Numbered from the stretch's first letter, positions 55,852 through 64,000 are shown. The stretch: 64,000 nucleotides of DNA from Myxococcota bacterium (GCA_036149055.1 JAYZQJ010000227.1:1-64000), one strand, 5' to 3'. Translations and numbers: made by a program. The notes: generated by a model from the letters alone, not told the origin.

Positions 55852-57567
55852 ATGCGCGCGTCCCATCTGATCTGCGTCCTGCTGCTGGCCGTCGGCTGCA
55901 GCGAATCCGTGACCCTCGAAGACGGGGGCCTGATGGACGGCGCCACGCCGGGCGACACCGGCGTCGTCGACGTCGACTCCAGCACCGAAGAAGACTCCGG
56001 CGTGTCCGACGACTCGGGCATCGAGGAGGACTCCGGCGTGATCGACGTCGACGCGGGGCCGCCGTGCGGCTCGGTCGGGCAGGACTGCTGCGACGGCGGC
56101 GAGTGCGACGAGGGCTTCTGCGACACGACGAGCAACACCTGCGCGGCCTGCGGCGGCGGCGGCGAGCCCTGTTGCCCCGGCGGCATGTGCACGGGCGGCT
56201 TCTGTGACGCCACCACCGACACCTGCACCGCCTGCGGCATGATCGGGGAGGCCTGCTGCCCAGGGAGCACGTGCCTCGACGGCTTCTGCGACGGCGCGAC
56301 CGACACCTGCAGCTCCTGCGGCGCGGCCGGCGAGAGCTGCTGCCCGGGCGACCTGTGCGACGCCGGGAACACCTGCAACCCGGCCGGGCTCTGCGTCGGC
56401 TGCGGCGACCCGGGCGAGGCGTGCTGCACGGACACCACCTGCAACGGCGGCGGCTGCTGCGTGTCGAACACCTGCGTCGGCGCGGGCTCGACCTGCGGCG
56501 GTGGGATCGGCGGCACCTGCACGGGCGGCAGCTGTGGGACCTGCGGCGGCGCCGGGCAGCCCTGCTGCGCGGGCGGCAGCTGCACGGCCTCCACCACGGT
56601 CTGCAACGGCGGCACCTGCGCGACCTGCGGCGGCGCCGGACAGCCCTGCTGCCCCGGCGACTCCTGCGGCGGCGGCCTGGTGTGCGGGGCGAGCGACATC
56701 TGCCAGCCCTGCGGCGGCGCCGGACAGCCCTGCTGCCCCGGCGACAGCTGCACCTCGGGCTGCTGCGATCCCAGCACCGACATCTGCGTGGCCGACGGCT
56801 CGGCCTGCGGCGTGGGCACCTGCACCGGCTCGACCTGCGTGGCCTGCGGCTATCCCGGCGAGGCCTGCTGCCCGGGCGACACCTGCCGCGGCGGCGGCTG
56901 CTGCGACGGCGGCTCCTGCCTCGCGGCCGGTGAGGCCCCGACCGGCACGAGCGGCATGGTCTGCGACCTCGGCGCGGTGGTCGCCTGCGGCGGCATGGGC
57001 GAGCCCTGCTGTGACGGCGCCGACTGCGCCGGCGGGTGCTGCCTCGAGGGGCTCTGCACCGCGGACGGCACGATGTGCGGCGGGCGCACCACCTGCTCGA
57101 TGGGGTCGTGCACGGTCGGCAGCTTCAGCTGCGGCGGCATGGGCGAGTCCTGCTGCGACTTCGGGATCACCGAGATGTGCACCTCCCCGGGCCTCGCCTG
57201 CGTCGGCGGCGGCAGCGGCTCCTGCCAGGCGTGCGGCGGCCCCGGTCAGCCGTGCTGCGATGGCCAGGCGTGCGACGGCGGCGGCTGCTGCGTGGGCAAT
57301 GTCTGCGTCGGTGACGGAGACAGCTGCGGCGGCGGCAGCCTCGGGGCCTGCTCCGCGGGCTCGTGTCAGGGCGGCACCTGCGGTCGACCGGGTCAGCCCT
57401 GCTGCCCGGGCATCGGGTGCAGCGGGCCGTTCGCCATCTGCGCCGGCGGCGCGGTGTGCGAGACCTGCGGCGGTGAAGGCGAGCCGTGCTGCTCGCCTCA
57501 CCAGCACTGCAACGGCTCGCTCGAGTGCACGTTCTCGGGCGGCGCGCAGGTCTGCGCTCGCCCTTGA
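55852..57567 (+). CDS. Extremely Cys/Gly-rich lipoprotein with CGxxGQPCC repeats
   Basis: Lipobox AVGC; more than ten CG..G[EQ].CC repeats; GGAGGGAG RBS. Confidence 0.85.
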   Translation: MRASHLICVLLLAVGCSESVTLEDGGLMDGATPGDTGVVDVDSSTEEDSGVSDDSGIEEDSGVIDVDAGPPCGSVGQDCCDGGECDEGFCDTTSNTCAACGGGGEPCCPGGMCTGGFCDATTDTCTACGMIGEACCPGSTCLDGFCDGATDTCSSCGAAGESCCPGDLCDAGNTCNPAGLCVGCGDPGEACCTDTTCNGGGCCVSNTCVGAGSTCGGGIGGTCTGGSCGTCGGAGQPCCAGGSCTASTTVCNGGTCATCGGAGQPCCPGDSCGGGLVCGASDICQPCGGAGQPCCPGDSCTSGCCDPSTDICVADGSACGVGTCTGSTCVACGYPGEACCPGDTCRGGGCCDGGSCLAAGEAPTGTSGMVCDLGAVVACGGMGEPCCDGADCAGGCCLEGLCTADGTMCGGRTTCSMGSCTVGSFSCGGMGESCCDFGITEMCTSPGLACVGGGSGSCQACGGPGQPCCDGQACDGGGCCVGNVCVGDGDSCGGGSLGACSAGSCQGGTCGRPGQPCCPGIGCSGPFAICAGGAVCETCGGEGEPCCSPHQHCNGSLECTFSGGAQVCARP

Positions 57568-57573
57568 ACCGCG

Positions 57574-58173
57574 TCACTCGACGAGCGTGATGACCCCACA
57601 GGCGACGCGGGCGCCCGCGTTGCCGGTGGGCTGTCCGCCGTCGTCCGGGTCGGCGTGCACGATGACCGCGCGGCCGGTGACCGGCGGCAGGTGGTCACCG
57701 TTCACGCTGAAGGTCTCGAAGGCCAGCTCGACGTGGACCTCGCCGCTGATGTCGGCCTCGACGTTGCCCATGTCCCCGGCGTGTCGCGCCGCGCCGTCCG
57801 GCAGCGCGTGGTCGTGGCCGCCGGGGTTGTAGTGCCCGCCCGCGCTGGTGCCGTCGGGAGCCGAGCAGTCGCCGTTCTCGTGCACGTGGAAGCCGTGGCG
57901 GGACTGCGGCGGGAGCCCGGTCAGGTCGACCTGCACCCGGACGAGCTGCCCCTGCTGCTGGAAGCGAACGGTGCCCTCGACCGCGTTGCCCTCGGTGGGG
58001 CGCATCTCGGCCACCGCGACCGGGGCCGGCTCGATCGGCCCCTCGGGCGCGATCACGTCGACCTGGGTGTCACCTTCTCCGCCGCTCGACGTCGCCTCCG
58101 CGGGCTCGCCCTGAGCGTCTCCCCCGCCGCAGGCGCCGAGCGTGAGAGCGACCATGATCATCAGCTTGCGCAT
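57574..58173 (-). CDS. sodC: Cu/Zn superoxide dismutase lipoprotein
   Basis: HGFHVH, GGHYNP..H..HAGDMGN, IVHADPDD, GNAGARVACG; lipobox LGAC. Confidence 0.95.
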   Translation of the reverse strand: MRKLMIMVALTLGACGGGDAQGEPAEATSSGGEGDTQVDVIAPEGPIEPAPVAVAEMRPTEGNAVEGTVRFQQQGQLVRVQVDLTGLPPQSRHGFHVHENGDCSAPDGTSAGGHYNPGGHDHALPDGAARHAGDMGNVEADISGEVHVELAFETFSVNGDHLPPVTGRAVIVHADPDDGGQPTGNAGARVACGVITLVE

Positions 58174-58242: not shown

Positions 58243-59121
58243 ATGACGCGCTGGAGCTGGGTGATCGTGCTGGTGGTCGTGCTCGGGGGCTGCCGCCGGG
58301 AGAGCTCGGTGCGGCCCGACGCCACGGTCCCCGACGCGAGCGCCCTGGACGGGGGCGCGCTCGACGCCGGCCGCGCCGGGGACGCCGGAGCGGACGACGG
58401 GGGGAGCGACGCGGGCCCCGCAGAGGACGGCGGCCTCGGCGACGGAGGCGCGGGCGACGGAGGCGCGGGCGACGGAGGCGCCGGGGACGGCGGCCTCGAC
58501 GGAGGCCCGGTCTCGATGCCCTGCACGCCGACCGGCGCGTGCGATCCCTTCGACGCCTCGAGCTGCCCGTCGGGGCAGAAGTGCGCGGTCACCGACATGG
58601 GCACCGCCTGCGAGGACCTCACCGCCGCGCCGCCGCTCGGCGAAGGAGAGACGTGCACCCGCGACTCCCAGTGCGGCCCCGGCACCTGGTGCGTGAACTT
58701 CGGGGGCGGCTTCGAGTGCGCCGCGATGTGCGCGGCCGGGTCCATCGGCGACTGCGGGGCCGACGGAGCCTGCGTGGGCCGGGTCGGCGCCGAGATGTGC
58801 GTCCAGGTCTGCCGCCCGATCTCGCCGCGCTGCGACATCTACGCTCAGGACTGCGCCGACGCCGCCGACGCCTGCACCCTCGCGAGCCACCCGGAGACCG
58901 GAGAGCGCTACACGGGCTGCCGCCCCGCCGGCGCGCAGGGCCTGGGCGATCCCTGCGGCGGGGGCATGGGCACCTGCGACCGCGGGCTGATCTGCATCCG
59001 AGAGTCCGGGGCCGCGACGTGTCGCGAGGTCTGCCGCGAGCCCGGCCCCCCGAGCTGCAGCGTCGCGGGCGAGACCTGCACCGGCAACGCCCGCAGCTGG
59101 GGCGTCACCTACTGCCGGTGA
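58243..59121 (+). CDS. Cys-rich lipoprotein with DGG/DAG linker
   Basis: Lipobox LGGC; GDGGA repeats; two CD....C...C modules. Confidence 0.8.
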   Translation: MTRWSWVIVLVVVLGGCRRESSVRPDATVPDASALDGGALDAGRAGDAGADDGGSDAGPAEDGGLGDGGAGDGGAGDGGAGDGGLDGGPVSMPCTPTGACDPFDASSCPSGQKCAVTDMGTACEDLTAAPPLGEGETCTRDSQCGPGTWCVNFGGGFECAAMCAAGSIGDCGADGACVGRVGAEMCVQVCRPISPRCDIYAQDCADAADACTLASHPETGERYTGCRPAGAQGLGDPCGGGMGTCDRGLICIRESGAATCREVCREPGPPSCSVAGETCTGNARSWGVTYCR

Positions 59122-59141
59122 GGCACGACTGTCGTGAGCCG

Positions 59142-60230
59142 CTATTTGGGCTCGGGCTCGGGCGCGCCGAACGGACCCTCGAGGGTGGAGCGGCGGGAGC
59201 GCGGGGGCAGCGCCGCGGGCGGCGGCACGCTGGGCACCGACGTCTTCGGCGGATCCGCGAAGCCCAGCATGCTGAGGAGCAGCGGCTCGATGCCGCGGCG
59301 GCGGAGCTCCGCGCTCGGCGTGGCCTCGCGGCGCACGAGATCGAAGACCGTCGCGTCGTCGAGGCTCATCGCGACCAGCGGCGAGTGGGTGGTCACGACC
59401 CACTGCACCCGCGGATGGAGCTCGGCGAGCGCCGGCAGGAGCTCCCGCTGGAGGCGCGGGTCGAGGTTGGTCTCGGGGTGATCGACGAGGACCACGCCGC
59501 TCGGCTCGAGCGCGCCGTCGCCGCTCCGCAGCCGCGACGCCTCGACCCGCATCATCACCTCGGCCCAGAGCCAGACCGCGGTGGCGTGGCCGAGGGACAG
59601 CCCGTCGAAGCCGACCCGGCGCCCGTCGGGCAGGTCGAGCTGCACCCCGCCGGGATCGAACGCGAGCCGGATCTCGGGCAGGTGCAGCAGCTTGCGCAGC
59701 GCGCTCCGGACCCGGAGGAACCACGCCTCGTGCAGCTTCTCGCGGAAGGTGTCGCCGCTCTCCCGGGCGAGGGTCTGCTCGGTCTTGCGGTTGACGAGGA
59801 GCTGCCCGAGCCGCTCGGCCACGCTCGCCTCCGGCGGCTGCGGATCGGTGTCGAGCGGGGTCGGCCGCGGAGCCGGCAAGAAGCGCGGCGACCGCGGCAG
59901 CGCGAGGTGGGCGAGGACGAGCCGCCCGCTCGCGTGCGCGGAGGCGACGTCGTCGTCCGTCCACGACACGCGCACCGGCCGCCCGAGGTGAGCCAGCTTC
60001 AGCGCCCGGTCGCGGGCCTCGCCGATCGGCGCGTCCACCTTCTCGGCCGGGTGCGCGCGCCCCTCGAGCGCCGCGCGGAGCTCGTCGACGATGCCCGACA
60101 GCAGGCTGCTCTTGCCCGAGCCGCTGGCCCCCAGCAGCACCAGCGACCGGGGCGCGTCCTCGTCCAGCGCGATGATCAGGGGCGACAGGTGGCGCAGCGT
60201 GCGCGCTTCGATGCGTCTCAGCCAGGTCAT
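59142..60230 (-). CDS. AAA_21/ABC-type ATPase with atypical Walker B (DH)
   Basis: GASGSGKS; LSLG; VVLVDHPETNLDPRLQR; VVTTHSP. Confidence 0.8.
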   Translation of the reverse strand: MTWLRRIEARTLRHLSPLIIALDEDAPRSLVLLGASGSGKSSLLSGIVDELRAALEGRAHPAEKVDAPIGEARDRALKLAHLGRPVRVSWTDDDVASAHASGRLVLAHLALPRSPRFLPAPRPTPLDTDPQPPEASVAERLGQLLVNRKTEQTLARESGDTFREKLHEAWFLRVRSALRKLLHLPEIRLAFDPGGVQLDLPDGRRVGFDGLSLGHATAVWLWAEVMMRVEASRLRSGDGALEPSGVVLVDHPETNLDPRLQRELLPALAELHPRVQWVVTTHSPLVAMSLDDATVFDLVRREATPSAELRRRGIEPLLLSMLGFADPPKTSVPSVPPPAALPPRSRRSTLEGPFGAPEPEPK

Positions 60231-60294
60231 CGCGTGGCTCTCGTTTTCGCCCCTGGCTTCGCCCGGGTCAATGGCGGCTGCTACCTTGGCGCCG

Positions 60295-61632
60295 ATGAGC
60301 GACGAACGAGGCCCCGACCCGCTCAGCCCGACCGAGCGCGCCGCGCGCATGGACGCGCCGCGACCGAAGCGCGACCTGCCGATCGCGCCCGAGCCGCCGC
60401 CGGGCAAGCGTCACCTCCCCCTGCTCGCGCCGCGGCCGAGCGACGCGCGCTACCGGCCGATCTACGCGGTCTGGGAGATCACCCTCGCCTGCGATCTCGC
60501 CTGCCGTCACTGCGGCTCGCGCGCCGGCCGGGATCGACCCGGGCAGCTCTCCACCGAGGAGTGCCTCGATCTCGTCGACCAGATGGCCGACCTCGGGGTG
60601 CAGGAGGTCAGCCTGATCGGAGGCGAGGCTTACCTGCACGACGGCTGGGTCGACATCATCCGCCGCATCCGCGAGCGCGGCATGATCGCCCTGATGACCA
60701 CCGGCGGGCGCGGGGTGACGAAGGAGCGCGCCCGGGCGGCCGCCGACGCGGGCCTCCAGAGCGTCAGCGTCTCGGTGGACGGCGTCGAAGCGACGCACGA
60801 TCGATTGCGGGGCGTGAAGGGCAGCCACCGCGCGGCCTTCGAGGCGTTCGACAACCTCCGAGAGGTCGGCATCAAGGTCAGCGCCAACACGCAGATCAAC
60901 CGGCTGAGCATGCCCGAGATGCCGCGGGTGCTCGACGACATCATCGCCGCCGGGATCCACTCCTGGCAGATCCAGCTCACCGTGGCGATGGGGCGCGCGG
61001 CCGACGAGCCGGAGATCCTGCTCCAGCCCTACGATCTCCTCGACCTCTTCCCGATGCTGGCCGACCTCAAGGCGCGCTGCGACGCGGCGAAGGTGCGGCT
61101 CTGGCCGGGGAACAACATCGGCTACTTCGGCCCCTACGAGTCGACGCTGCGCGGGACGATGCCGCGCGGGCACATGGCGTCCTGCGGCGCGGGCCGGGTC
61201 ACCCTCGGCGTCGAGGCGGACGGGGCGATCAAGGGCTGCCCCTCGCTGCCCACCGAGGCGTGGACGGGCGGGAACATCCGGGACGCCTCGCTGAAGGACA
61301 TCTGGGAGCGCTCGGCGCCGCTCCGCTACACCCGCGACCGCACGGTCGAGGATCTCTGGGGCTACTGCCGCACCTGCTACTACGCCGACGTCTGCCGCGC
61401 GGGCTGCACGTGGACCAGCTTCGTGCTCTTCGGCAAGGCGGGGAACAACCCCTACTGCCACCACCGCGCGCTCGAGCGGCAGCGCGAGGGCAAGCGCGAG
61501 CGGGTCGTCCGCAAGGCCGAGGCGCCCGGCCTGCCCTTCGACCACGGCGAGTTCGAGATCGTGCTCGAGGACGCACCTCGAACCGACGAGCCACCTGCGC
61601 TAGCATCGTCGCCGGGAGGGACCGGAACGTGA
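60295..61632 (+). CDS. Radical SAM/SPASM peptide-modifying enzyme, PlpX splicease-like
   Basis: YAVWEITLACDLACRHCGSRAG (CxxxCxxC), IGGEA; SPASM CGAG..ADGAIKGCPSLP..CRTC..CRAGCTW..NNPYCHHRAL. Confidence 0.9.
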   Translation: MSDERGPDPLSPTERAARMDAPRPKRDLPIAPEPPPGKRHLPLLAPRPSDARYRPIYAVWEITLACDLACRHCGSRAGRDRPGQLSTEECLDLVDQMADLGVQEVSLIGGEAYLHDGWVDIIRRIRERGMIALMTTGGRGVTKERARAAADAGLQSVSVSVDGVEATHDRLRGVKGSHRAAFEAFDNLREVGIKVSANTQINRLSMPEMPRVLDDIIAAGIHSWQIQLTVAMGRAADEPEILLQPYDLLDLFPMLADLKARCDAAKVRLWPGNNIGYFGPYESTLRGTMPRGHMASCGAGRVTLGVEADGAIKGCPSLPTEAWTGGNIRDASLKDIWERSAPLRYTRDRTVEDLWGYCRTCYYADVCRAGCTWTSFVLFGKAGNNPYCHHRALERQREGKRERVVRKAEAPGLPFDHGEFEIVLEDAPRTDEPPALASSPGGTGT

Positions 61633-61979
61633 GTCACCTGCTTCCTTGCGACGGCTGCGACCGTCACGTGCGGGCCGACGAGCCCACGTGCCCGTTCTGC
61701 GGAGACAGCCTCCGCCACCGCGGCGCGCCGCAGCTCCCCGGGGCTCGCCTGGGACGCGCCGCGACCTTCGCGTTCGGCGCCGCCCTCGCGGCCGCGACCG
61801 CGAGCGGCTGCGGCGAGAGCCACGACCGGACGGACGGCGGTGAGCCGCCCGCCGACGCCGCCGAGCCGCCCGCCGACGCGGGGATCGAGCGAGACTCGGG
61901 CACGGTCGCGCCGCCGTACGGCACGCCGCCCGACGACGGAGGCTTCGCCCCCTTGTACGGTGGGGCGCCCGAAGAGTAG
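61629..61979 (+). CDS. Candidate rSAM substrate 1: CxxC/CPFC leader, lipobox, two PxYG motifs (116 aa)
   Basis: GTG overlaps the rSAM TGA, GGAGG RBS; SHLLPCDGCDRHVRADEPTCPFCG..RLGRAATFAFGAALAAATASGC..APPYGTPP..APLYGGAPEE; clear paralog of the next gene. Confidence 0.85.
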   Translation: MSHLLPCDGCDRHVRADEPTCPFCGDSLRHRGAPQLPGARLGRAATFAFGAALAAATASGCGESHDRTDGGEPPADAAEPPADAGIERDSGTVAPPYGTPPDDGGFAPLYGGAPEE

Positions 61980-61990
61980 GAGACACGACC

Positions 61991-62521
61991 ATGAGCTTGC
62001 TTCCTTGTCCGGGCTGCGACCGCCACGTGCGCGCGGCCGAGAGCACCTGCCCCTTCTGCGGAGAGGTCCTGCCGATGTCGCTGCGCAGCCGCGCGGCGCC
62101 GGTCCCCACCCGCCGGCTCGGGCGCGCGGCGACCTTCGCCTTCGGCGCCGCCCTCGCGGCGAGCGCCTGCGGCGGAGAAGTCACCCCGGAGGACTCGGGC
62201 GTGCAGCAGGACTCGGGCGCTACGCCGTCGGACGGCGGCGGGGCGGACGGCGGCGGTGACGTCGACTCCGGCGCGACCCCGGACCCGGACTCCGGCGTGG
62301 TGGCCGACGCGGGCTCCGCCCCGGAGGACGCGGGGACCGAGAGCGACTCCGGCGTCGAGACCGACGCGGGCGCGGCGCCGACCGACGCGGGCGGCGTGGT
62401 CCCGGCGTACGGCGGCCCGATGCCGATCGACGGCGGCCTGACCCGGCGCGACGGTGGCCTCTCCCGGCGCGATGGTGGTGGAGTGATGCCCCTCTACGGC
62501 AGCCCGCCCCCCAGCGAATGA
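61991..62521 (+). CDS. Candidate rSAM substrate 2: CxxC/CPFC leader, lipobox, DSG/DAG linker, two PxYG motifs
   Basis: AGGAG RBS; SLLPCPGCDRHVRAAESTCPFCG..RRLGRAATFAFGAALAASAC..VPAYGGPMP..MPLYGSPPP. Confidence 0.9.
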   Translation: MSLLPCPGCDRHVRAAESTCPFCGEVLPMSLRSRAAPVPTRRLGRAATFAFGAALAASACGGEVTPEDSGVQQDSGATPSDGGGADGGGDVDSGATPDPDSGVVADAGSAPEDAGTESDSGVETDAGAAPTDAGGVVPAYGGPMPIDGGLTRRDGGLSRRDGGGVMPLYGSPPPSE

Positions 62522-63708
62522 GGCGACTGCTCTTCGCGCTGGCGCTCCTCGGCTGCGACGGCGCCACGGTCGCCGACGGCGGGCTCGCGATCGACGGCGG
62601 CCCGGAGGTCGTGGACGCCGGTCGCGCCGACGGCGGCGTCGACGCGGGCGGCGCGACCGGAGACGCGGGCGTCGACGCGGGCGCATCGGACGACGCGGGG
62701 CGCGACGACGCGGGCGCGCCCGACGCCGGGCCGAGCGGGCCGCTCCAGCTCTACGTGGCGCCCGACGGCGACGACACCCGCGACGGCCTCTCGGAGGCGA
62801 CCGCGGTGCTCAGCCTCGGCCGGGTGCACGAGCTCCTCGAGGCGCTCCGGCCCGAGCGGGACGTCGAGGTGCGGATCGCGCCGGGCACCTACCACGGGCA
62901 GACCGTGAGCTGGCGCTATCACCACCCGGAGCGCGAGATCCGCTTCATGCCGCTCGGCGACGAGCGCGACCGCCCGGTCTTCGACGGCTGCCTCGCCGAC
63001 GGCAGCTGCCCCGGCGGGACGTGGCTGCGGCTGCGGGTCTCGAGCGGCGCCCGGACGAACCTGCACTTCCGCTACCTCCGGGTGCAGCGCTACCAGACCG
63101 CGATCAGCCTCGACGGCAACCGCAACGATCCGGCGGCGTCGAACGGGGGCAACACGATCTTCGGCTGCTACTTCGACCGGATCGGCAACGTGTTCGCGCC
63201 GTCCCTCGACCCGTCGACCGCCGCGGTGCGCCTCGTCAACAGCGACGACAACCGCATCGAGAACAACCACTTCGTCGACGTCGTGAACACCCGGAGCGGC
63301 GGCCTGATCCACGCCCTCTACGTCGCCCACCTCAGCGACCGGAACACGATCGCGCGCAACCGCTTCCTCCGGAGCACGGGCGACCCGGTGCGCCTGCGCG
63401 ACTACTCCAACGACAACGTCATCACCGACAACCGCTTCATCCGGGTCGGGACCCACGCCGGCTACACCGACTGGTACTGCGACCACGACGCGCGGACCGA
63501 CTGCACCAAGCCCACGCCCGAGTGTCCGAGCTGGAACAACCAGTTCCGCGACAACCTGCTCGATGGCGACTGGACCTGCGGCGCGCTCGGCACCTTCCAC
63601 TACTTCCAGGACGACACCACCACCGGCTGCAGCCCACCGAGCGCCGGCGCCCGGCGCCTGAGGACGAGCGGCAACGAGTCGACCGCCGCGCCGTGCTCCA
63701 TGGAGTGA
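62518..63708 (+). CDS. Lipoprotein with right-handed parallel beta-helix domain
   Basis: Lipobox LLGC; YVAPDGDD..DG, IAPGTY; repeated N.I.NN.F turns; ATGA overlap with substrate 2. Confidence 0.8.
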   Translation: MRRLLFALALLGCDGATVADGGLAIDGGPEVVDAGRADGGVDAGGATGDAGVDAGASDDAGRDDAGAPDAGPSGPLQLYVAPDGDDTRDGLSEATAVLSLGRVHELLEALRPERDVEVRIAPGTYHGQTVSWRYHHPEREIRFMPLGDERDRPVFDGCLADGSCPGGTWLRLRVSSGARTNLHFRYLRVQRYQTAISLDGNRNDPAASNGGNTIFGCYFDRIGNVFAPSLDPSTAAVRLVNSDDNRIENNHFVDVVNTRSGGLIHALYVAHLSDRNTIARNRFLRSTGDPVRLRDYSNDNVITDNRFIRVGTHAGYTDWYCDHDARTDCTKPTPECPSWNNQFRDNLLDGDWTCGALGTFHYFQDDTTTGCSPPSAGARRLRTSGNESTAAPCSME

Positions 63709-63728
63709 AGGTGCGGTACGGTGAGCGG

Positions 63729-64000
63729 GTGAGAGCGCTCTCCGGGATCGCCGCGCTGCTGCTCGCCGCCTGCACCGGCGGGAGCACCGTCTACGTGGAC
63801 GTGCGCACGGACTACGTGCCGGGCATCGAGTTCGCGGAGGCGCGGGCCGAGGTCGGCGCGGCCGGCGTGCTGCGGCGGGTGGATCGCGCGGCGGCGCGCG
63901 GCGAGGACTGGGTCGCCGGCCAGCGGGTGGGCCAGGTCGACGGGCTGGGATCGGGGACACACGAGATCCTGGTCGAGCTGCGGGCGAGCGACGGCGCCCT
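63729..64000 (+). CDS. Lipoprotein, truncated by the window end, with VDxRTDxVPG N-domain
   Basis: VRALSGIAALLLAAC-TGGSTVYVDVRTDYVPGIEF..GEDWVAGQRV; open to the window edge. Confidence 0.75.
   Translation, partial: MRALSGIAALLLAACTGGSTVYVDVRTDYVPGIEFAEARAEVGAAGVLRRVDRAAARGEDWVAGQRVGQVDGLGSGTHEILVELRASDGA

Follow-up and report, generated by a model that had tools for sequence, protein, structure and literature searches.

Does the radical SAM (rSAM)/SPASM gene at this locus encode a backbone splicease, and are the small proteins encoded directly behind it lipoproteins that serve as its substrates? The original prediction had answered both questions in the affirmative, and had placed an rSAM/SPASM gene, two small zinc-ribbon proteins with Tyr-Gly motifs and a beta-helix lipoprotein in a single operon. 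The window (the whole stretch of 64,000 nucleotides that was analysed) comes from a marine myxobacterium. Inspection of the sequence confirmed the proposed layout, with four genes in a row:

60295..61632, plus strand: rSAM/SPASM enzyme, splicease-like, 445 aa (Pfam and NCBIfam matches)
61629..61979, plus strand: precursor A1, 116 aa (homologues, alignment)
61991..62521, plus strand: precursor A2, 176 aa, paralogue of A1 (alignment, family profile)
62518..63708, plus strand: beta-helix lipoprotein, 396 aa, N-terminus MRRLLFALALLGC (Pfam Beta_helix and NosD)

The junctions between these genes are as had been described. The TGA stop of the enzyme gene (61630-61632) overlaps the GTG start of A1 (61629) in a GTGA, and a Shine-Dalgarno-like run, GGGAGGGA, lies upstream of that start. 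A1 has no ORF entry of its own, lying inside a stop-free frame of 1146 aa (58539-61979); a protein identical to the 116-aa A1 exists in the public protein collection. A2 starts at 61991, 11 nt past the A1 stop, and the beta-helix frame starts at 62518, overlapping the A2 stop in an ATGA. The stop-free frame of the enzyme extends back to an ATG at 60091; alignments with homologues begin at query residue 2-9, in support of a start at 60295. Neither promoters nor terminators were found in a scan of 59900-64000, a region of 75% G+C in which such a scan is uninformative. Contigs from four RNA libraries of two studies cover A1 and A2 (e.g., 61401-62198, 61620-62269, 60627-61823, and 61815-62727), and in library X17 all 30 of 30 bins of the region are covered, which fits expression and DNA carry-over alike. 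Such contigs give no strand, ends or level, and the uncovered parts in X18, X19, and X20 carry no meaning; the cover of A1 and A2 is thus consistent with transcription, with DNA carry-over as another possible source. Finally, the beta-helix protein (Pfam Beta_helix, 25.0 bits with a cut-off of 25.9; NosD, 24.4 bits with a cut-off of 23.6) had been proposed as part of the operon, and this proposal was rejected because no homologue occurs in any of the 72 related loci (tblastn, E ≤ 1e-5) and no cluster besides enzyme and precursor is conserved there. It is regarded as a local neighbour.

The enzyme matches the Pfam families Radical_SAM (PF04055, 84.2 bits) and SPASM (PF13186, 31.1 bits). As in PlpX-type spliceases, it has both the CxxxCxxC motif (C66/C70/C73) and a full set of seven SPASM cysteines (C297, C315, C358, C361, C367, C371, and C388), all of them invariant among 38 aligned homologues; the motifs VWEITLACDLACRHCGSRAG, GCPSLP, and NNPYCHHR, by which it had been recognised, are all in the sequence. 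In an NCBIfam search, the best match was TIGR04103, the PlpX family (528.7 bits, E 7.9e-159), followed by TIGR03913 (476.4 bits); the next family, TIGR04133, reached 155.6 bits, so that the top two are at least 320 bits ahead of all others. The predicted placement within the splicease clade therefore held as to the order of the families, but not as to the curated cut-offs (725 for TIGR04103 and 591.75 for TIGR03913), neither of which is reached, and the enzyme is better described as near the clade than in it. Relatives behave similarly: among 75 full-length proteins chosen from the 150 best-listed representatives, none passes the TIGR04103 cut-off and a single one passes that of TIGR03913 (P0125, 771 bits, from the same broad clade), so that the link to characterised spliceases is one of clade-level homology only. 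Judged by its sequence, the enzyme is splicease-like, yet a curated member of neither TIGR04103 nor TIGR03913.

A1 and A2 are members of a large unnamed family of the Myxococcota, with 262 homologues of A1 at E ≤ 1e-3. A2 is 58% identical to A1 in the alignment and is the best match of its own genome to the precursor family profile (E 3.1e-40). In this family, a zinc ribbon (C..C.RHV...CPFCG) is followed by RLGRAATFAFGAA and a lipobox Cys, behind which lies a disordered acidic tail with [AV]P-x-Y-G-x-P sites. In A1, the ribbon spans C7..C24 (61647-61700) and is followed by R40-L-G-R with the h-region (61746-61808), the lipobox Cys61 (61809-61811), and an acidic linker; in A2, the ribbon spans C6..C23 (62006-62059), and the lipobox Cys60 (62168-62170) is followed by a long acidic D/G/S/T linker. 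Residues C7, C10, R12, H13, C21, P22, F23, C24, R40, L41, R43, A45, F49, C61, Y97, and G98 are invariant in an alignment of 46 sequences around A1. The motif coordinates given earlier were exact (PPYG at 61911-61922 and PLYG at 61950-61961 in A1; PAYG at 62402-62413 and PLYG at 62489-62500 in A2), and X-Y-G sites beside an rSAM/SPASM enzyme, two in each protein, are what is expected of spliceotide precursors. The claim of exactly two motifs is true of A1 and A2 themselves, but not of the family, whose members carry from zero to six sites (two in 63, three in 27, four in 13, one in 11, none in four, five in one, and six in one). Conservation of the motif itself was borne out, since at least one YG is present in 116 of 120 homologues among the matches listed. 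Across 121 family proteins, Tyr in the mature part is followed by Gly in 281 of 288 cases, with a Gly share of residues of only 0.246, and the sites tend to have Pro at -2 (216/281) and at +3 (210/281). The tails are otherwise disordered and of low complexity, the YG sites being their sole conserved elements. This Tyr-Gly pattern, together with the RxxRAA/Cys pattern described below, is far beyond chance.

Across the Myxococcota, the enzyme and its precursors are linked both by position and by genome co-occurrence. The rSAM gene lies directly beside arrays of one to five precursors in 49 of 72 loci; in the other 23 no enzyme is adjacent, and in all 10 genomes tested with such orphan precursors it is found elsewhere, at 62-83% identity. 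Of 151 Myxococcota genomes sampled, 43 have the enzyme, and the 20 that match the precursor profile all belong to these 43; the profile has no match in the 108 enzyme-negative genomes, and 23 of the 43 enzyme-positive genomes have no match to this A1/A2-type profile. Another example of the linkage is found in the same genome: the gene order is reversed there, with three precursors that share this architecture lying ahead of a second enzyme, 55% identical to the first. Comparison of the related loci, the stretch in the window and L007 revealed no conserved neighbour cluster besides enzyme and precursor.

How the two components might recognise each other is suggested by structure prediction. The complex model of A1 with the enzyme gives 0.77 (0.77, 0.78, and 0.71 in separate runs) versus 0.02 for the best control; of 157 solved complexes, 116 attain the mark used for such models, as do 2 of 215 mismatched pairs. 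The confident interface comprises A1 residues 4-6, 10-13, and 22 and enzyme residues 278-284, 288, 292-293, 362-363, 366, and 390, in models in which the pLDDT of the partner is 41-44, its fold is uncertain, and the runs share as little as 17% of contacts. The zinc ribbon is accordingly predicted to dock on the SPASM domain. Co-variation between the partners has also been observed: C.RHV ribbons go with FGPYE/YY/H390 enzymes, CR.HI ribbons with the L007-type enzyme (FSHFEE), and ribbons lacking Arg-His with enzymes in which 362/363/390 are PY or AF followed by F. No comparable solved complex was found, the closest PDB sequences being SkfB (E 9.3e-22) and PqqE. Since none of the YG sites is placed with confidence, the model is silent on the reaction.

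Whether the substrates are also lipoproteins depends on the segment between ribbon and tail. In 120 of 121 family proteins, RxxRAA is followed by 14-20 residues, the h-region, and then by a Cys, which in A1 (Cys61) is invariant after the hydrophobic stretch in the 46-sequence alignment. Of 120 proteins, 119 have G or A at position -1 of the lipobox, 109 have V/A/S/T at -2, and 104 have A/L/V/T at -3, the non-canonical Ala occupying -3 in 45. The family thus has the positive n-region, h-region, Cys and small -1 residue of lipoproteins. A folded n-region of 40 aa preceding a lipoprotein signal is unusual. Alternatively, the small proteins could be substrates without being lipoproteins, their hydrophobic stretch acting as a type-II signal anchor that keeps the ribbon in the cytoplasm, or as an enzyme-bound leader helix, as in RhaA, with release by another protease. 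This is considered unlikely: the frequent Ala at -3 would suit it, as would the conservation of RLGRAATFAFGAA, which far exceeds that of ordinary signal peptides, and the leader alpha-helix employed by type II spliceases, as far as the accessible text of that work goes (PMC11414181); against it stand the invariant Cys, the nearly uniform -1 position, and the length of the h-region after two Arg. Moreover, a divergent subfamily has the same signal-like features in a different sequence (GRSGLLAGALLAF.AC), and a third subfamily keeps signal and Cys in yet another unrelated sequence. In the model, the ribbon and not the hydrophobic stretch makes the confident contacts, and neither a protease nor a transporter is conserved in the vicinity.

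A somewhat smaller chance is given to the alternative that the enzyme-precursor pairing is real and that the chemistry at Tyr-Gly is another radical reaction (C-C or C-O cross-linking, epimerisation, or beta-hydroxylation) and not tyramine excision. The enzyme falls under the equivalog cut-offs of both TIGR04103 and TIGR03913, and rSAM/SPASM peptide maturases catalyse many reactions. In addition, 78 of 281 sites have Pro as the residue X before Tyr-Gly, which may not suit splicing; no statement that spliceases accept Pro at this position was found in the accessible parts of the splicease literature. Nevertheless, the lead of these same two families over all others speaks for splicing, as does the strict Y-G pairing, which is the signature used for mining spliceases, and 27 YG-associated enzyme-substrate pairs have been confirmed as spliceases, according to the parts of a review consulted here (PMC10849128). 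Very improbable, and disfavoured here, is the idea that the zinc-ribbon membrane proteins are regulators or partners (e.g., anti-sigma-like) and that the neighbouring rSAM enzyme acts on another substrate. An N-terminal zinc finger with one membrane segment resembles some anti-sigma factors; however, neither a sigma factor nor any other gene is conserved in the surroundings, the disordered tails are conserved at the YG sites only, the precursors occur in one to five tandem copies as RiPP precursors do, and their co-occurrence with the enzyme across genomes is strict.

Taken as a whole, the interpretation of the small proteins as lipid-anchored splicease substrates is partly supported. The presence beside the enzyme of proteins that combine Tyr-Gly sites with a lipoprotein export signal and a zinc-ribbon handle indicates that the products are probably lipid-anchored keto-amide envelope proteins, and on sequence and modelling evidence we lean towards a two-component, spliceotide-like system of protein modification with spliced and lipidated products. 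In such a system, the cytoplasmic enzyme would recognise the precursor through its N-terminal ribbon, whose invariant Arg-His knuckle would dock on the SPASM domain, as the model and the co-variation suggest. The enzyme would then modify every P-x-Y-G-x-P site at its Tyr by tyramine excision, a step suggested by homology and by the near-exclusive Tyr-Gly pairing. RLGR, the hydrophobic stretch and small-small-Cys would next serve as a lipoprotein signal peptide, with export of the tail by Sec and lipidation of the Cys. By sequence rules, signal peptidase II would cleave before the Cys, so that ribbon and signal peptide would be discarded together in the fashion of a RiPP leader. The expected products are acidic disordered lipoproteins of 56 aa (A1) and 117 aa (A2) with two ketoamide sites each, which, speculatively, might serve in the envelope as electrophilic traps or as tethered inhibitors of proteases.

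A more far-reaching proposal is offered tentatively. Zinc ribbon and lipoprotein signal may together constitute a RiPP-type leader, in which the ribbon recruits the splicease and Sec, Lgt, and signal peptidase II export the product and remove the leader; the envelope would then bear spliced ketoamide lipoproteins as tethered inhibitors or covalent traps, and paralogous enzyme-ribbon pairs, such as the two in this genome, would be orthogonal. Splicease chemistry itself is already known. If the proposal is true, backbone splicing extends beyond diffusible peptide natural products and routinely modifies envelope lipoproteins across much of the Myxococcota, considering the 43 of 151 genomes with the enzyme. 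Leader handling would also be new, in that the handle for the enzyme would be a folded zinc ribbon and the leader protease would be signal peptidase II, and a small zinc-ribbon tag recruiting a splicease could be a protein-engineering alternative to helix-type leaders. YG-guided splicease mining across 189 genera was reportedly carried out by Scott et al. 2022 (Chem). A search of the accessible parts of the splicease and spliceotide literature turned up no precursors described as zinc-ribbon proteins or lipoproteins.

Several known families may be compared with this system. TIGR03913, known here by its name only ('GDL motif peptide-associated radical SAM/SPASM maturase') and for which no paper was found, is the second-best family of the enzyme; nevertheless, the enzyme lies below its cut-off and A1 and A2 have no GDL motif, so neither the score nor the peptide partner of that family is found here. 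TIGR04133 ('rSAM_w_lipo'), whose members presumably occur together with a putative lipoprotein, as the model name implies, resembles the system in joining an rSAM/SPASM enzyme to a lipoprotein-like partner, but the score of 155.6 bits, with a cut-off of 425, indicates a different clade. Type I spliceotide systems of Pleurocapsa are said to be covered by Morinaka 2018. Systems of this type, PlpX/PlpY/PlpA and PcpXYA, have been described in Pleurocapsa (TIGR04103, IPR026482; PMC11414181, PMC9811515, PMC11002830, each as far as its accessible text goes). Likeness to them lies in the best family match of the enzyme and in X-Y-G precursors encoded beside it, often in several copies. In contrast, the loci here lack a conserved Y (RRE-like) protein nearby, the enzyme scores 528.7 under a cut-off of 725, and the Nif11/NHLP leader is replaced by a zinc ribbon with a lipoprotein-type signal; A1 and A2 have no Nif11 or NHLP match in Pfam or NCBIfam, and the type I combination of such a leader with a separate PlpY-like RRE protein is thus absent from the A1/A2 system. 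Similar in composition are the type II binary systems of Rheinheimera, RhaX/RhaA, RasX/RasA, and RcsX/RcsA (PMC11414181, PMC11626197), which, within the accessible text of these papers, also consist of enzyme and precursor without a Y protein, rely on recognition through the precursor's N-terminal portion (as the model predicts here), and have Leu or Met as X at the spliced sites. No leader protease or exporter is conserved at the loci described here, which is a difference from these systems. Where a leader alpha-helix has been modelled on the Rheinheimera enzyme, according to the same partial sources, a zinc-ribbon knuckle is predicted on the SPASM domain here; and where free disulfide-bridged peptides are the products there, the core lies here behind a lipobox Cys.

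The radical SAM (rSAM)/SPASM gene at this locus is read as a probable splicease (a PlpX-type enzyme that excises tyramine and leaves a ketoamide), with the two small zinc-ribbon proteins beside it (A1 and A2) as its putative substrates. As far as the linkage of the genes, the conservation of the motifs and a modelled interface for recognition go, this reading is well supported; the ketoamide chemistry, lipidation and function of A1 and A2 are predictions. Four genes lie in one orientation and with nearly zero spacing (window positions 60295–63708) in a region of about 75% G+C. The locus features that had been described earlier were confirmed as a whole (gene positions, overlaps and motifs), including the quoted enzyme motifs and all four P-x-Y-G motifs, which sit exactly where they had been placed.

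Genes of the locus and its flank (window positions)
55852–57567 (+): Cys-rich secreted or lipoprotein-like protein, 571 aa, many C-C-P-G...C repeats; no family in Pfam or NCBIfam
57574–58173 (−): Cu/Zn superoxide dismutase (Pfam Sod_Cu, 144.4 bits), lipoprotein-type N-terminus MRKLMIMVALTLGAC
58243–59121 (+): Cys-rich secreted or lipoprotein-like protein, 292 aa; weak Dickkopf_N match only (18.5 bits)
59142–60407 (−): AAA ATPase (Pfam AAA_21, 54.4 bits), divergent orientation
60295–61632 (+): rSAM/SPASM enzyme, 445-aa form; stop-free frame extends back to 60091
61629–61979 (+): A1, 116 aa; GTG start within the enzyme stop (GTGA), GGGAGGGA run upstream
61991–62521 (+): A2, 176 aa, 11 nt downstream of A1
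62518–63708 (+): beta-helix lipoprotein, ATGA overlap with A2

Homologue alignments begin at residue 2–9 of the 445-aa enzyme form. A1 has no separate ORF entry, as the reading frame that contains it is already open at 58539, and an identical 116-aa copy is present in a public protein collection (P0001). The AAA ATPase, which weakly matches the retron effector ATPase PtuA (62.9 bits against a cut-off of 500), is not conserved next to the enzyme/precursor system in other loci.

In the enzyme, Pfam domains Radical_SAM (84.2 bits) and SPASM (31.1 bits) were recognized. Its closest NCBIfam model is that of the PlpX family, TIGR04103 ("nif11-class peptide radical SAM maturase 3"), where it scores 528.7 bits (E 7.9e-159) against a cut-off of 725; TIGR03913 ("GDL motif peptide-associated radical SAM/SPASM maturase") comes second, the score of 476.4 bits again being below the cut-off (591.75), and TIGR04133 third with 155.6 bits. 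With these scores the protein falls within the broad clade around the spliceases, but neither family counts it as a curated member. In an exhaustive search, 30404 representatives reached E≤1e-3, of which 663 also reached E≤1e-30. The same two families ranked highest in all 75 full-length relatives chosen among the best 150 listed; one of these (P0125) passed the TIGR03913 cut-off and none that of TIGR04103, the highest being P0130 with 550.6 bits. The three rSAM and seven SPASM cysteines are invariant in 38 homologues. No similar solved structure was found in the PDB, where the best sequences are SkfB (E 9.3e-22) and PqqE (4e-19).

For the precursors, 262 homologues of A1 were found at E≤1e-3; among the 120 listed, named sources are Sandaracinaceae, Polyangiaceae or "Deltaproteobacteria" hypothetical proteins. 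Neither Pfam nor NCBIfam holds a family for A1/A2-type proteins, except for weak zinc-finger matches. The family has one constant layout: an N-terminal ribbon (h-L-x-P-C-x-x-C-x-R-H-V-R-x-x-E-x-x-C-P-F-C-G) is followed by a linker of 15–25 residues, the motif R-L-G-R-A-A-T-F-A-F-G-A-A, a few small residues closed by a Cys, and then by a D/G/A/P/S-rich tail in which [AV]-P-x-Y-G-[AGT]-P is present 0–6 times. Invariant in 46 aligned precursors are C7, C10, R12, H13, C21, P22, F23 and C24, together with R40, L41, R43, A45, F49, C61, Y97 and G98. Downstream of the Cys, Tyr is followed by Gly in 281 of 288 cases (121 proteins), the Gly frequency there being 0.246, and the preceding residue at these 281 sites is Leu (103), Pro (78), Ala (48), Val (24), Ile (13), Met (9) or another (6).

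The precursor stretch, with two Arg, a hydrophobic run of 14–20 residues and small-small-Cys, the Cys being invariant, matches the established rule for lipoprotein signal peptides (substrates of Lgt and LspA); lipidation is putative. RxxRAA, 14–20 residues and Cys occur in 120 of 121 precursor proteins, with G or A at position −1 in 119 of the 120, G or S at +2 in 103, and the non-canonical Ala at −3 in 45. Two divergent precursor subfamilies keep the same signal-like features in unrelated sequences, as would be expected of a signal more than of a specific helix. Under this reading, the ribbon would be cytoplasmic, acting as an unusually long n-region, and would be discarded together with the signal peptide.

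A pattern scan with one genome per species gave 72 loci, among which L082, from a Sphingomonas genome, was rejected as a member. The enzyme was found in 49 of the 72, nearly always immediately upstream of 1–5 tandem precursors; in one locus, L028, it lies 5.4 kb off as part of another unit (L059) on the same contig. The precursors of the 22 member loci without the enzyme retain the Y-G sites, and in all 10 orphan-precursor genomes tested an enzyme (62–83% identity) is encoded elsewhere. When the ORFs of the loci were clustered all against all, just the precursor cluster (60 loci) and the enzyme cluster (51) proved to be widely shared; other large clusters were antisense frames of the enzyme. 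For the beta-helix lipoprotein, a homologue was found in 0/72 loci; it neighbours the system here without being part of it.

Of 151 Myxococcota genomes sampled evenly, 43 have the enzyme (E≤1e-80) and 20 match the precursor profile (E≤1e-5); these 20 all belong to the 43, and the 108 enzyme-negative genomes gave no profile match. The genomes are related, so these counts are not independent and carry no P-value. In 18 of the 19 precursor-positive genomes other than the window's own, a precursor match lies within about 1 kb of an enzyme match, as read from the coordinates. The remaining 23 enzyme-positive genomes, which lack a match to the A1-type profile, may use other precursors. At L043, L057, L063, L071 and L073, paralogous enzymes 60–65% identical to that of the window stand on both sides of the tandem precursors, an arrangement also seen in L087/L088, L094/L097 and L095/L098; the second enzyme has D-I-G-Y-F-G-P-Y-E-T, and both may serve a single array.

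A complex model built from our own enzyme and A1 alignments, and therefore only roughly calibrated, scored 0.77 (three runs: 0.77, 0.78 and 0.71; best control 0.02). In the calibration set, 116 of 157 solved complexes attain this mark, as do 2 of 215 mismatched pairs; partner pLDDT was at least 41 and at least 17% of contacts were common to the runs. Confident contacts involve ribbon residues 4–6, 10–13 (C-D-R-H) and 22, and enzyme residues 278–284 (F-G-P-Y-E-S-T), 288, 292–293, 362–363 (Y-Y), 366 and 390 (His of C-H-H-R), which lie in or next to the SPASM domain and are mostly invariant. No YG site was confidently placed in this model. Among 69 listed enzyme matches of at least 56% identity (L007 type excluded), nearly all have G-Y-F-G-P-Y-E (F, H or Y variants occur in a few), while Y-Y and His390 are common to the whole set; ribbons found within 2.5 kb of them read C-x-R-H-[VIL]. 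The L007-type enzyme has F-S-H-F-E-E and is paired with C-R-x-H-I ribbons. L089 has a ribbon resembling the L007 type, yet its enzyme retains F-G-P-Y-E-E. In the three enzymes of L090, L091 and L101 (50–51% identity), positions 362/363 read P-Y or A-F and residue 390 is Phe, and the upstream ribbon of L090 and L091 is without Arg-His. This co-variation fits the modelled interface and, across three clades only, is suggestive. In L090 (about 1040–1400, genome G003) and L091 (about 1090–1460, genome G001), whose third-clade enzymes are about 51% identical to the window's, Y-G immediately follows the lipobox Cys (LSAC-YG), with a Cys-rich DGDGYC...GDGIDQNCD domain downstream; splicing at Cys-Tyr-Gly would here affect the lipidated residue itself.

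A second splicease-like system is found in the window's own genome, where contig C208 (L007, 127–2832) encodes an enzyme 55% identical to that of the window, with FSHFEE at the position of FGPYES. Upstream of this enzyme are three small ORFs in tandem, built on the plan of A1 and A2 but different in sequence, with a C-x-x-C-R-x-H-I ... C-P-F-C ribbon, the signal part G-R-S-G-L-L-A-G-A-L-L-A-F-x-A-C (GRSGLLAGALLAF.AC) and an acidic tail with R-Y-G, E-Y-G, A-Y-G and M-Y-G sites. Here the precursors come ahead of the enzyme, the reverse of the order in the window, which favours functional pairing over an arrangement that was simply inherited. The systems of the window and of C208 may be orthogonal enzyme–ribbon pairs. 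Three further matches to the precursor profile lie away from either enzyme; the protein on C128 has a longer charged region and, beyond it, one C-terminal CPPYGTP site.

Orphan precursor-profile matches in the window's genome (G000)
C128, 142516–142950 (−)
C199, 16334–16645 (−)
C4, 17257–17682 (−)

DNA near-identical to 59000–64000 occurs in 20 listed runs (12 studies). Most are marine metagenomes, among them seawater, invertebrate-gut and cold-seep samples, and one of these may be the source of the window DNA. Contigs from four RNA libraries (two studies) cover A1 and A2 and cross the gene junctions; they fit co-transcription of enzyme, A1 and A2, although they give no strand or level and DNA carry-over is possible.

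Examples of RNA-library contigs (window positions)
X17: 60627–61823 and 61815–62727
X18: 61620–62269
X20: 61401–62198

Among known spliceotides, type I systems require a Y protein, type II systems work with two components and a leader helix, and the products assayed so far inhibit Ser and Cys proteases; the mining study of Scott et al. (2022) is reported to have found PlpX-like enzymes with YG-rich neighbours in 189 genera, of which 27 enzyme–substrate pairs were confirmed (PMC11414181, PMC11626197, PMC9811515, PMC11002830, PMC10849128). Zinc-ribbon or lipoprotein precursors for spliceases were not found described in the literature searched, the full Scott et al. (2022) listing aside. The system is present in the complete genome of Labilithrix luteola (L062) and as a Sandaracinus amylolyticus protein (P0048); since genomes carrying it were already public, the myxobacterial type may well be included in that list. 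It is filed among the spliceotide systems as a variant, possibly one already covered by Scott et al. (2022).
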